DNA of 64,000 nucleotides from Bacillota bacterium. Its GTDB lineage: Bacteria > Bacillota > Sulfobacillia > JAJZIM01. The translations under genes and the position numbers were made by a program. Shown piece after piece: positions 1,807-29,836 of the stretch (positions within the stretch are counted from its first letter, which is position 1; each line of letters begins with the position of its first letter). Where the stretch lies: the NCBI GenBank assembly GCA_021810565.1, contig JAJZIM010000004.1, forward strand, positions 13,300 through 77,299. The letters run 5' to 3'. Below the pieces are notes generated by a model. The model saw only the letters and a list, made by a program, of their open reading frames with translations. It made no database searches and was not told the DNA's origin.

Positions 1807-2847
1807 TCAGGCGGCGGGAGGAATGCCGCTTCCCTCCTTCCATGTAAAACCGCTAGCCCGGGCCAGGAGCCTGACATCGGACTGCCGCCATTTGCCCGCC
1901 CGTTTCCCGTTGGCGTCCGCTACGGCTACCAGCGGGGTTCTGTCCGTGGGCAGTCCGCAGACCCAGCCCCGGATTGCCCCCTTCCTGGTGGACACCTCCA
2001 CCCAGTCGCCCTTGCGGAAGAATGTCCCGTTCGTCGTGCCCCCGAAACGCGGACGCCTGCCGCCCTTCTGAAACTCCTGCCGGTGAAGGCTCCTGCGGGC
2101 GAACCGCAGGGCCGTCCACACGTGGAACGGCGGGCTCCCCAGGCCGCACCCCGTCGCCCCCATCAGCATCGCCGCGGCGTCCACCGCCTGCGCCCCGAAC
2201 ACCTGCGGGCGCTTGGGACCGCGGATCTTCTCCAGGCCGAACTCCTCCCGCCATGCCGCCGTCTCCCTGGCCGTCACCAGGGTCAGCGGAGCGAGTTTTC
2301 CCAGTTCCTCATAGGTGAGCTTCTTGCCCACCTCCGCCGTGCTGAAATGCCGGTCGCCCTTGCCGTTGACCGGCTTGTGCCGCACGTCCTCCACGTAGAT
2401 GGCCTGGATCGGGTATACCTTGCACAGTTCCCCTACAGCCTTCAACCGGGCGTTGACCTTGGACGCCTGCGTGGGCGCCAGCCAATACCGTTGGCCATGC
2501 CGCCGGTTGTTGAACCTCGCCGGCCTGCGGGGGCAGTTGCGGAACCGCCTGGCCCTCCGCAATCTGGCCCGCTCCTTGTTCTTCTTGGGAACTCCGATGG
2601 GCAAATTGACCTGACCCGTTACCTCAACCTTGAGGTTGGATGCCGCGGCCACGCCCTCGAACTTCCCACCCGGGTCGAGTGCCAGCGCCATCGGAGGGAC
2701 CTCCATCCGGGTGGGTATGAGTATCTGGATATAAAACAGCCCCAGCTTGTTGCGCCGTGGAACGGCCACCTTGTCCCGGATCATCACCCTGGCGTTGGCC
2801 GGGGTGGTGGGGCCAAGAGGCTTGCCGTCCATCGAAACCACGGGCAC
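1807..2847 (-). CDS. isrB: IsrB-like protein (IscB homologue lacking the HNH domain)
   Basis: PLMP-like N-terminus VPVVSMDGKPLGPTTPANARVMIRDKVA. RuvC-I ALDPGGKFEGVAA. Arg-rich bridge helix RLRRARRFR..RPARFNNRR. RuvC-II IQAIYVEDV. RuvC-III AQAVDAAAM. C-terminal FRKGDWVEV like the IscB copy. No CxxC..H..N..CxxC insert. Start set at GTG 2847 (ATG 2832 also possible). The first ~66 codons of track ORF 1807..3045 are taken as leader RNA. Confidence 0.7.
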   Translation of the reverse strand: MPVVSMDGKPLGPTTPANARVMIRDKVAVPRRNKLGLFYIQILIPTRMEVPPMALALDPGGKFEGVAAASNLKVEVTGQVNLPIGVPKKNKERARLRRARRFRNCPRRPARFNNRRHGQRYWLAPTQASKVNARLKAVGELCKVYPIQAIYVEDVRHKPVNGKGDRHFSTAEVGKKLTYEELGKLAPLTLVTARETAAWREEFGLEKIRGPKRPQVFGAQAVDAAAMLMGATGCGLGSPPFHVWTALRFARRSLHRQEFQKGGRRPRFGGTTNGTFFRKGDWVEVSTRKGAIRGWVCGLPTDRTPLVAVADANGKRAGKWRQSDVRLLARASGFTWKEGSGIPPAA

Positions 2848-3127
2848 TCTCGGTTGTTGCAAAATGGGACACTCCCTTCGCCTCCCCCCGAGCGGGAGGG
2901 TGATTGTCGCCTCGACGCTGCCCAACCGGCTTAGACCCCGAAGGATCATGGCATTCAGCGGTTCTGCCGCAGAGGTCAGGACTGGCGAAATATCCCGACG
3001 TGCTTGTAGCCGGTTGGGGCCGCTGCTCCCCTTGCGGGAAGCCATCTAGTCAGCCTGTTGCCCTTGCCCCCGCCGGGGCAAGCCCCCACCTAAGCTGATG
3101 GCTTCAGGTGGGGGTGGTTGACCAGCA
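2848..3127 (-). ncRNA. putative omega RNA region of the IsrB-like gene
   Basis: ~280 nt directly 5' of the IsrB start with several GC-rich hairpins (for example CTTGCCCC/GGGGCAAG near 3071-3090 and CCCCACCT/AGGTGGGG near 3091-3120). The position matches the known IscB/IsrB architecture. Ends not mapped. Confidence 0.4.
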
Positions 3128-15081: not shown

Positions 15082-15153
15082 GTCTAGGTCCCGCCCCCTG
15101 TTTGCTCAAGTTCCACGCCTTCCGCTCTCCATGCCCCCGCGAAGCCTTGCGGT

Positions 15154-16605
15154 TCAAGGCTTCGCGGGACCTACCGCCGTTGTGCTGAAGTTCACGCCCC
15201 GCTCCCGCCGTCGACGGACCACCGCGCCGGGAGACGCCTCCGCGAATCCGCGACCCGGCAGAGCCACCTTCAGGACGCCGCGAGACCTGACCCCGACCAC
15301 CCGGCCCTCCGGGACGGCGCCCTGAACCCGCACGGCCACCCAGTCACCCTTGCGGAAGGCGTTCTGGGGAGCGAACTCCCCCGCCCGGTACACCCGCCCA
15401 TCCGTCCCAAGGGCCGCATTCGCCTCCACCCGCACCCGGACACCCGTGCCGATCCGCACCCGACGGTTGAAAGATGCCCACGGCGGAAACGGGCCCTTGG
15501 GAGACAGCACCTGCGCCTTGAAGGCCTGCCGGGTCCTGGCCGTACGGCACGTGATCCTGACCGCCGTACCCCGGTACAGCACGGGCGGCCGGTCCTTGGG
15601 ATCGCGGCCGCAGGCCGCCGCATCGTTCGCGTGGGTCTTGGAAAGACCCCAAGCATCCCTGACCGCCGCCGTGTCCTTCCCGTCCACCAGCCGCGCCGGA
15701 ACCCTCAGCGCCCGCTCCAGGGAGAGCCGCAGGTAGTTCTTCCCCGCCTGGAGCCGCGCCGCGTAGCGCATGGTCCTGACAAGCTTCTTCGCCCCGCGCA
15801 TGGGCACCCTGGCCTTCTCCAGGCAGTCGGGGCACAAGAGCGCCCGGTTCACCCAGGCGTCCGTGCCGCACTCCCGCCTGGGGGTGAGATGGGCCGCCAC
15901 CACGAAGCCTTCCGCGCCGCACCGTTGGCACTTCCCCCGCTGGATCTTGTTTAGGGCCTCACGTGTGTTGCGGCTGCCCCTCTTGGGACCGTTCCCGGGG
16001 GCGATCCCCTGCATGGCCTGGGTGTCGAAGCTCCCCGTCTCCACGGTGGCCGCCGTGACCGGCGTGATCTTCCGAAAAAAAGCAGCCGCCCTGACGATCC
16101 GGTCCTTGCGGGCCTTCTGGCTGGGCGGCAGCCACGGGACGAAGTTCCTGACCTCTGCCGGTTCACTTGCGTGGGATCGACACGTGTCCGCGCCTTTGCG
16201 GGCATTCCTGCCGCACACCCGGCACTTCGTCCGGGGGCGGTTGTCCCGCCGCTCCTCCCGGTGCCCCAGGCGATAACGCCTAGCCCGACGGTAGTTCCGG
16301 CGCTGGTCCAGCTTCCTCTTCGTGTCGTTGGAGAGGTTGATCTCCCCGGCGAACACCACTGCGTCCGGTTTGACGGTTCGGTGCTGGATCACAGCCACGC
16401 CGCCCGCCTTCGCCCCGTCGTCCGTCTTGAACTCCACCTCCTGCCCCGGCCAGGGGCCGCGCCCCGACGGCTCGAACAGAAGCCGGATGGTGAACGGGGT
16501 CCGCCGGACCACCTCCGCGCGCCCGGCCTTGAGCAGCCTCCGCGCCTTGGCCGGGTGCATGGGCATCAGGGGCTGGTCGTCAGGGGCCAGAACGAAAACA
16601 CGCAT
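15154..16605 (-). CDS. iscB: IscB RNA-guided endonuclease homologue
   Basis: PLMP domain MRVFVLAPDDQPLMPMHPAKARRLLKAGRA. RuvC-I KTDDGAKAGGVAV. Bridge helix RRNYRRARRYR. RuvC-II TAATVETGSFD. HNH CQRCG..AAHL..VNRALLCPDC. RuvC-III SKTHANDAAA. C-terminal TID-like FRKGDWVAV. Start at ATG 16605. Confidence 0.85.
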   Translation of the reverse strand: MRVFVLAPDDQPLMPMHPAKARRLLKAGRAEVVRRTPFTIRLLFEPSGRGPWPGQEVEFKTDDGAKAGGVAVIQHRTVKPDAVVFAGEINLSNDTKRKLDQRRNYRRARRYRLGHREERRDNRPRTKCRVCGRNARKGADTCRSHASEPAEVRNFVPWLPPSQKARKDRIVRAAAFFRKITPVTAATVETGSFDTQAMQGIAPGNGPKRGSRNTREALNKIQRGKCQRCGAEGFVVAAHLTPRRECGTDAWVNRALLCPDCLEKARVPMRGAKKLVRTMRYAARLQAGKNYLRLSLERALRVPARLVDGKDTAAVRDAWGLSKTHANDAAACGRDPKDRPPVLYRGTAVRITCRTARTRQAFKAQVLSPKGPFPPWASFNRRVRIGTGVRVRVEANAALGTDGRVYRAGEFAPQNAFRKGDWVAVRVQGAVPEGRVVGVRSRGVLKVALPGRGFAEASPGAVVRRRRERGVNFSTTAVGPAKP

Positions 16606-16965
16606 GATGCGGGTCACTCTACTTCCCGGTGAACCAAGAATGAGGTTGTCGTGTCCCTTGCCCAACATTGCCGGAGCCTGGACCCGGATCGGTCCTCCCG
16701 CCGTGCCGTTTTCCCGTGATCTCCACGGGCTTGCCTTCCCTTCCCCCGAAAGGGTGTCGGGCGAGTCGTCTTACCCAGCGGGTCCGGGCGGGTACTGGGA
16801 GTTGTGACTACGCTTCCCTGCCGGTCTTTGGCCTTCATCGGCAATGCTGGTTCATCCTTCGCTCCGGTCGTCCCGGAGTTTCGTCACCCGGGCTGGCCCA
16901 AGTTACCGCGGTTTGACCGTCTTCAGCACAACGGACGGGCCTGAAAACCCCGCCGTTGTGCTGTT
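16606..16965 (-). ncRNA. putative omega RNA region of IscB
   Basis: Non-coding, hairpin-rich leader 5' of iscB (CAGCACAACGG/CCGTTGTGCTG, CCGTG/CACGG, CCCTT/AAGGG stems). The position matches known IscB loci. The 5' guide and exact ends were not determined. Confidence 0.45.
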
Positions 16966-16966
16966 T

Positions 16967-17437
16967 CTAGTCGAAGCTGTGGAACTTGAGTGTTTGGGGA
17001 GCCAGCGCCAGCCACACGCCGCGGTTCCGGCGCACCGCCAGGACGTCCGGGGGGCGCTCCCCGCCCACGCGCAGCCACCGGCGCAGGGTCCCGAGGGAGC
17101 CCCGGCGCACCCTCACCATCCCGGACACCGGCGCGTGGGCGAAGCCCGCCGCCGCGTACCTGGCCAGGGTCGTCAGAAACAACGGCGGCCCGGCCCCGTC
17201 GTCCAGCATGAGCGCCCCGCCGCGGCCCGTGGCGTTGAGCGCGTTGTAGAGCGTGGCGAATCCGGCGGCGTGGTACTTCACCTCAGCGCGCATCGACTCA
17301 TTGGGGCCGAACACCACGTCATGCTCCGCATCCAGGGTGGCCCCCCGAATACCGGCAGCGCCGGAGAGGGGCACCCGCCGACCGCCCAGGATGCGGGCCA
17401 CCTCCAGTTCCCCCCTCCTGCCCTTCCGTTGCTGCAT
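16967..17437 (-). CDS. PD-(D/E)XK nuclease, Hjc-like Holliday-junction-resolvase candidate
   Basis: GRRGELEVARIL ... HDVV ... AEVKYH fits a G..E / D / E-x-K pattern. Start set at ATG 17437. The Arg-rich N-extension was rejected. Confidence 0.5.
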   Translation of the reverse strand: MQQRKGRRGELEVARILGGRRVPLSGAAGIRGATLDAEHDVVFGPNESMRAEVKYHAAGFATLYNALNATGRGGALMLDDGAGPPLFLTTLARYAAAGFAHAPVSGMVRVRRGSLGTLRRWLRVGGERPPDVLAVRRNRGVWLALAPQTLKFHSFD

Positions 17438-29565: not shown

Positions 29566-29687
29566 ATCGTGCCGCCTCCCCTGCCACCCCGCGCTGGATC
29601 CCTATGGTGGTTCCAAGCTGGTTCCAAGACTGGTTCCAGGGTGGTTCTAACCAAAATTCCGTGACTGGTTCCAAGGTGGTTCCAACG

Positions 29688-29836
29688 CCGGAAAAAGGGC
29701 TTTTTCTTCAGCATCCACCGCCGTCGTGCCGAAGTTCACCCCCCGCTCCCGCCTCCGGCGGACCACCGCATAACGGAGGGGGCTGGAAACCCCATCATTG
29801 TGCTGTTTCTGGCCAAATCTATGGAACCTGAGTTTC
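29688..29836 (-). mobile_element. miniature, internally deleted derivative of the IscB element
   Basis: 29712-29768 is about 83% identical to 15168-15226 (IscB 3' end). It is followed directly by 29769-29836, about 79% identical to 16927-16993 (left-end hairpin / omega RNA 5' part). The ~1.7 kb in between is absent. Confidence 0.55.

Follow-up and report, generated by a model that had tools for sequence, protein, structure and literature searches.

IscB, the ancestor of Cas9, has been thought to have a biology tied to IS200/IS605 'peel-and-paste' transposition, and takes its guide from the flank that abuts the omega-RNA end of its element. ISC and IS605 elements are reported to have neither terminal inverted repeats (TIRs) nor a target duplication, and their subterminal hairpins are bound by the transposase Y1 TnpA (Kapitonov et al. 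2016, PMC4810608). A retention or homing logic has been shown for IscB and TnpB of IS605 elements, with IscB cleaving vacant donor joints (PMC10055086), and TbaIscB has been described as the founding IscB of the Cas9 lineage (PMC13180657). The locus analyzed here lies on the minus strand of a 64,000-nt stretch of a Bacillota bacterium assembly (GCA_021810565.1, contig JAJZIM010000004.1, positions 13,300 to 77,299; hereafter the window) and consists of an IscB gene with a leader at its 5' side inside an element of 1886 bp (15105-16990), plus a 6-bp duplication. A preliminary description made from the sequence alone had presented it as a complete IscB locus with all catalytic motifs and ends as expected for the IS200/IS605 type. 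The 12-bp TIRs and the 6-bp target duplication, both lacking in described ISC and IS605 elements, do not fit such ends. We lean, though not strongly, towards reading the locus as a non-autonomous element that combines a TbaIscB-like IscB with a divergent omega RNA, is mobilized through its inverted repeats, takes its guide from the flank and encodes a nickase.

The boundaries of the element were defined by its repeats (Table 1). An inverted repeat sits at the two termini, a second one lies ~60-80 nt inside each end, and the hexamer CAAACA flanks the whole; this pairing of inverted and direct repeats is the only one of its kind in the window. Removing 16990-15099 in silico joined the codons ...GCT CCC CAA ACA of a resolvase-like upstream gene to GGG GGC GGG ACC TAG AC ATG, which brings the stop codon and the start of the next gene back into a compact junction; the upstream protein would then end ...LALAPQTGGGT. 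In the window, the new last codons of this gene (LKFHSFD*) are supplied by the left terminal repeat, which is also the 5' strand of a proposed RNA helix, P1. A search with the upstream protein returned relatives at 83-92% identity. The C-terminus of database protein P0218 is exactly ...LALAPQTGGGT, P0216 ends ...QTGGRD and P0214 ends ...QTGSGA, while P0215 and P0217 carry the ...QTLKFHSFD of the window, the last seven codons of which are element-derived. Since C-termini of both the P0218 type and the P0215/P0217 type were found, occupied and empty alleles coexist in public assemblies, the empty ones (P0218 ...APQTGGGT) with one copy of CAAACA. That an IscB-carrying element is truly inserted here, between the boundaries given, is nearly certain in our view. 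The interval first proposed, 15138-16990, was thus correct at 16990 and is extended at the right end to 15105 (15099 with the direct repeat); a hairpin is indeed present near each end.

Table 1 Features of the IscB element and its surroundings. Positions are those of the window; all features are on the minus strand.
Feature	Position	Details
Resolvase-like upstream gene	16970-17437	IscB element inserted in its last codons
Predicted guide-encoding flank	16997-17012	~16 nt directly 5' of scaffold; GCUGGCUCCC+CAAACA including the repeat; inferred
Left direct repeat CAAACA	16991-16996	Target-site duplication; encodes Q-T codons of upstream gene
Left terminal inverted repeat CTCAAGTTCCAC	16979-16990	12/12 complementary to 15105-15116
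Candidate omega-RNA scaffold	16640-16990	~350 nt
Proposed helix P1	16990-16983/16904-16897	Encloses left hairpin; HEARO layout, drawn by hand
Left-end hairpin CAGCACAACGGCGGGG / CCCGUCCGUUGUGCUG	16924-16963	11 bp + bulge + 4 bp
Left subterminal inverted repeat	16921-16934	Left hairpin 3' arm + AAG
Proposed pseudoknot	GCCCG 16893-16889 / UGGGC 16664-16660	HEARO layout, drawn by hand
Long-range helix	16847-16839/16673-16665	Proposed; counterpart of HEARO long-range helix
IscB open reading frame (P0001)	15154-16605	Uninterrupted, 483 aa; 487- and 504-aa starts also from gene callers
PLMP motif	16561-16572	Residues 12-15; P12/L13/P15 conserved in alignments A2, A3, A7
RuvC-I D62	16420-16422	Aligns with OgeuIscB D61; D in 42/45 relatives
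Zn-finger insert C128-x2-C131...C142-x2-H145	16171-16224	Between bridge helix and RuvC-II; common to TbaIscB
RuvC-II E189	16039-16041	Aligns with OgeuIscB E193; E in 44/45 relatives
HNH insert	15820-15930	Residues 226-262: C226, C229, A238, H239, N253, C258, C261, L262
RuvC-III H325...D328 (KTHANDAA)	15622-15633	Align with OgeuIscB H340/D343
Predicted C-terminal beta-strand domain, TID-like	15175-15423	Residues ~395-477; domain length shared only with P0003/P0069
Right subterminal inverted repeat CTTCAGCACAACGG	15177-15190	14/14 complementary to 16934-16921; within last 12 IscB codons
Right-end hairpin	15136-15168	14-bp perfect stem; overlaps IscB stop codon
Right terminal inverted repeat GTGGAACTTGAG	15105-15116	Perfect 12-bp pair with left end
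Right direct repeat CAAACA	15099-15104	Followed by GGGGGCGGGACCTAG = original last codons and stop of upstream gene, AC, ATG of next gene (15081)
Degenerate mini copy	29717-29833	Left end fused directly to last ~53 nt of an IscB open reading frame

A third allele of the upstream gene (P0213, P0219, P0220) ends ...LALAPAAVAQPVLRVSYCSGRGRVGDA and diverges after ...LALAP, two codons before the insertion point, so insertions or rearrangements may be especially frequent at this site. A reading of the P0213 tail as a translated homologous leader was not supported (scores of 18-23 against a background of 20.9 +/- 4). Scans of viral contigs found no copy of the element end sequences, and the upstream gene was not found in phage and viral collections.

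The degenerate mini copy, 12.7 kb from the element and between unrelated genes, helped to define the nature of the hexamer. Its left end (a TIR-like CTCAGGTTCCAT plus hairpin) is ~80% identical to that of the element and its open reading frame (ORF) remnant of ~53 nt is 89% identical to IscB. Homology begins at the terminal repeat and the 6 nt beyond it differ from CAAACA, which argues that CAAACA is target-derived and not an end motif encoded by the element. The reading of 29717-29833 as an unoccupied paralogous target was ruled out by the unrelated flanking genes, by homology that starts exactly at the terminal repeat and by the substitutions in the 53-nt remnant, mostly at third codon positions; the region is better read as a second, internally deleted copy. 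Directly downstream of it, and upstream of a D5/DUF5906 primase-helicase gene, are five close TGGAACC(A) repeats (29600-29700, minus strand), which may be iterons or remains of a right terminal repeat. A general regulatory role for TGGAAC in the host element was rejected, as the motif is not enriched.

As the preliminary description had noted, no TnpA gene was found within or beside the element, and the genome has three to four Y1 TnpA genes at other sites. The element could therefore be viewed as a canonical ISC/IS200-IS605 element moved in trans by one of these, with CAAACA serving as target-adjacent motif (TAM) and transposon-end motif, the hairpins as TnpA sites and the TIR being incidental or part of the RNA structure (P1). 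Such a route would suit the subterminal hairpins at both ends and a genome that holds, besides its Y1 genes, at least 14 RNAs of the HEARO family, many of them at contig ends; in addition, ISC elements are usually non-autonomous (PMC4810608), and TAM and transposon-end motif are near-identical in IS605 elements (PMC10055086). We nevertheless consider it unlikely. The left and right hairpins are unrelated in sequence, a perfect 12/12 inverted repeat exactly at the termini has a chance of ~6e-8, the hexamer is not element-encoded given that it differs at the mini copy, and a transposon-end motif equal to the TAM would turn the occupied site into a self-target. In their form the ends resemble cut-and-paste transposons, and we favor instead mobilization in trans by a transposase that would recognize the inverted-repeat ends and make staggered cuts.

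The protein encoded by the element is an IscB of the TbaIscB-like clade. The 483-aa ORF scored 190.6 bits against NCBIfam NF040563 (guided_IscB; curated cut-off 175 bits) over residues 3-332, and 3e-37 against Pfam RRXRR. Its best sequence match among solved structures was TbaIscB (PDB 9k30, E 2.5e-63, residues 1-371), with HfmIscB and OgeuIscB ranking after it. An AlphaFold2 model (mean predicted local distance difference test score, pLDDT, of 79.7) likewise returned TbaIscB first in a fold search (E 3.6e-30, template-modeling score 0.60), ahead of other IscBs, IsrB (PDB 8dmb, rank 4) and type II-D Cas9s. The uninterrupted frame, the PLMP motif and the Arg-rich bridge helix of the preliminary description were all confirmed, the last with R102, R106, R109/110, R116, R119 and R123 invariant, and C128, C131, G132, N134 and C142 of the Zn-finger insert are invariant across alignment A3. 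In the C-terminal domain, the model placed strands at residues 422-477 (pLDDT 74-88) after a disordered segment at residues 358-395, and a GD.V motif could be aligned; the IscB fold match is to the whole protein. M1 of the 483-aa ORF aligns with M1 of TbaIscB and of further IscBs. The frame is also open for 21 codons upstream of M1 (16606-16668, minus strand; MLGKGHDNLILGSPGSRVTRI), with a similar extension in P0064, and this segment is probably a conserved 3' region of the RNA or a 5' untranslated region rather than coding sequence.

We next compare the two nuclease sites. The four residues named as RuvC residues in OgeuIscB (D61/E193/H340/D343; PMC9640706) align with D62, E189, H325 and D328, which are kept in 41-44 of 45 relatives. 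The RuvC site is intact, and we read the protein as RuvC-competent. In the HNH insert, the zinc cysteines C226, C229, C258 and C261, the general base H239 (OgeuIscB H247) and N253 are all present, but both metal-ligand positions are non-polar: A238 precedes the catalytic His, a position occupied by H, D or E in 40 of 45 relatives, and L262 follows the second CxxC, where N or H is found in 42 of 45. The ORF thus does not contain a complete HNH active site (metal ligand plus His...Asn...metal ligand). Its Pfam HNH score of 18.8 is below the cut-off of 21.4, and the 'KGNRTP' segment that follows the HNH motif in close relatives is missing. Four population variants, on more than 10 contigs and with the 483-aa frame open in all, carry A238 and L262, so these residues are not errors. 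We take positions 238 and 262 to be the two metal-ligand sites of ββα-Me nucleases (SpCas9 D839 and N863). The SpCas9 substitutions D839A and N863A each alone yield a nickase. With both ligand positions non-polar the HNH domain is probably inactive, and most likely RuvC alone would cut the non-target strand, which would make the protein a natural nickase with a folded HNH domain. The claim that all catalytic motifs are present holds for the RuvC residues and for the CxxC..H..N..CxxC pattern but is wrong at the two HNH ligand positions; 'intact' was an overstatement, as the usual metal ligands are both absent from the HNH site.

A fully active nuclease making double-strand cuts, in which HNH would cut the target strand through H239 and other ligands (e.g. 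E263, D260), is in our judgment improbable. The retention of H239, N253 and the four zinc cysteines, the confident prediction of the HNH region (pLDDT 81-90) and the Ala-His pair in the deposited HfmIscB would all be expected of it, but it has to accommodate non-polar residues at both ligand positions, unlike the great majority of relatives, the nickase outcome of each equivalent SpCas9 substitution and the loss of the KGNRTP segment.

Two further observations concern variation in these domains. The >=90%-identical population variants, P0002 and P0223 among them, show only three amino-acid differences, K225E, V236A and C246R, all within 22 residues of the HNH domain (residues 225-246; 15868-15933), a clustering that is consistent with relaxed or altered selection there. 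Among more distant proteins, P0083, P0085, P0088 and P0104 have substituted RuvC and/or HNH positions (e.g. RuvC TQYD, KEQR, KELD; HNH V..L), and nuclease deficiency may recur among IscB-like proteins.

As first described, the leader does not code for protein and is able to fold, but its minimum free energy is only modestly better than that of shuffles (z = -1.97). The closest retrievable locus in viral, metagenome and genome scans and in order- and phylum-level searches was that of an Armatimonadia metagenome-assembled genome (locus L022; protein P0066), at 40-43% identity. Upstream of its ORF by 70 nt is a HEARO match of 42.7 bits (E 2e-7), under the 83 bits that define HEARO membership. Local alignment of the leader with this RNA was collinear and scored 73.5, compared to 38.9 +/- 7.0 for 200 shuffles (none above 65); control regions gave 29-46. 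The blocks common to the two are CAGCCC, GACRACUCGCCCG, AGGGAAGG and CCGGCAA...UGGGCRAGG, and RNAalifold on the pair retained an 11-bp long-range helix with two compensatory pairs. These weak similarities make it plausible, although not established, that the leader is a very divergent HEARO-type omega-RNA gene. A motif scan with ACTCGCCCG...AGGGAAGG in viral contigs, where IscB loci are common (58), gave 46 matches, which we attribute to chance because none adjoined an IscB. An arrangement with the 3' arm of the left hairpin (16934-16918) as guide and the scaffold starting from the inner GUCAA (16917) was not retained, since the empty alleles place the boundary at 16990, a position from which P1 can form.

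The element inserted recently into the last codons of the resolvase-like gene within an integrated mobile element. In the mechanism we propose, the scaffold is taken to start where the element does, as it does in other IscB elements, and the guide would accordingly be the upstream flank (...GCUGGCUCCCCAAACA), the sequence of which is unique in the genome; the leader would be transcribed together with ~16 nt of this flank. In the empty allele GCTGGCTCCCCAAACA is followed by GGGGGC, and in the occupied allele by CTCAAG, so that with a TAM in the downstream flank action would be limited to empty alleles. The ribonucleoprotein would recognize the empty allele and spare the occupied one, which would favor retention or homing of the element, and with HNH silent its action would be a nick in the non-target strand. 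The most far-reaching form of this proposal is that an IscB-omega-RNA module has left the Y1 (IS200/IS605) route for a transposon with TIRs and target duplication, and as a RuvC-only nickase drives flank-guided nicking homing of empty alleles of the host element. We put this forward as a possibility only, and a rather doubtful one; such a nicking homing system would be between IscB and IsrB in activity, in a clade next to the Cas9 lineage.

Several results weigh against the combined reading of a TIR-mobilized, flank-guided nickase element. With the HEARO model (Rfam RF02033), 11 of 14 other IscB loci had an upstream omega-RNA match (96-134 bits), and the RNAs of the two other RRXRR genes on the contig of the window were also detected, but the model gave no match to 16540-17010 (471 nt) even at E<=10, formally the outcome that the preliminary description had named as counting against its own claim. 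From 12 HEARO hits we built a covariance model of our own and an nhmmer profile; neither found a match in the leader, the former even with filters switched off, and nhmmer across 147 IscB loci gave the L022 region as sole match at E = 3.5. No transposase with matching ends and no further terminal-repeat copy were found in the 115-contig assembly, and the empty allele is known from protein sequence alone. For the HNH domain, E263 beside L262 might act as a substitute ligand, and in HfmIscB (PDB 9k2z) the catalytic His likewise follows an Ala, though the deposited chain could be an engineered mutant. In the PDB chain of TbaIscB, the RuvC-I Asp and the HNH His are both replaced by Ala relative to wild-type P0065.

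Some of these results would also fit a decaying relic with HNH lost, omega RNA degenerate, no RNA-guided activity and an ORF open only because the insertion is young (no covariance-model match for the leader, lost HNH ligands, a frameshift after ~residue 177 in P0064, the only 80%-identical relative, the deleted mini copy, and the nuclease-deficient relatives P0083, P0085 and P0088), but we regard this as the least probable explanation given intact RuvC residues, PLMP motif, bridge helix and zinc ligands, a frame open in four variants on more than 10 contigs, amino-acid variation found in HNH only and not across the rest of the protein, and perfect element ends.

The IscB unit is carried inside a larger mobile element. 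The neighborhood encodes DNA polymerase A, parts of a RecD-like helicase, a D5/DUF5906 primase-helicase, an RNA ligase, an SLT lytic transglycosylase and a C5 methylase, and is followed further on by chromosomal genes (COX1, ABC auxiliary protein), from which we read the host region as an integrated phage-like element or one resembling an integrative and conjugative element. Two other OMEGA loci are close by. A second RRXRR gene at 1807-3122 (minus strand) has a 412-aa frame with no HNH by Pfam and is IsrB-like; the HEARO match upstream of it (~2900-3122; 64.3 bits, E 1e-12) is below the gathering score. A third locus just past the end of the window (contig C58, 78093-79126) consists of a HEARO RNA (83.4 bits) and an IscB fragment cut by the contig end, and similar copies at the ends of contigs C46, C30, C114 and C69 suggest a multi-copy IscB family that breaks the assembly.

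If our reading is correct, an RNA-guided retention or homing module could be combined with a different transposition chemistry, here caught as an occupied/empty polymorphism. The protein would be a natural candidate for a compact nickase and a case of HNH loss or silencing in the small TbaIscB-like clade, a neighbor of the Cas9 lineage. That the HEARO model missed the leader would mean that screens with covariance models find too few of the omega RNAs of this clade.

Compared to HEARO, the leader agrees in place and strand and in the hand-drawn layout, with P1 enclosing a hairpin, CAG followed by the pseudoknot strand, a long-range helix and a 3' UGGGC.AGG, whereas neither the invariant CUACGUU nor the GGAUG...CCAGUCC hairpin can be made out. 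With ISC/IS200-IS605 elements the locus shares a single IscB gene, a length of ~1.3-1.9 kb, the lack of a transposase, subterminal hairpins and an RNA gene at the 5' end, and differs by its 12-bp TIR, 14-bp subterminal inverted repeat and 6-bp duplication. The L022 IscB (525 aa) has an intact HNH motif, unlike the window protein, and the L022 locus showed no TIR at its ends. TbaIscB (P0065, 531 aa) is 43% identical to the window protein over residues 1-371 and shares the PLMP motif, the bridge helix, the CxxC...CxxH before RuvC-II, the RuvC D/E/H/D and the HNH insertion point. Its HNH reads E-H and C..CN, against A-H and C..CL in the window protein, which also lacks the KGNRTP segment and ~20 residues after HNH, has a different and longer C-terminal domain common only to P0003/P0069, and is paired with an RNA that the HEARO model does not recognize. 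The predicted outcome, cutting by RuvC only, is that of the OMEGA nickase IsrB, which has no HNH domain, whereas the window protein keeps this domain together with its zinc site and general base.

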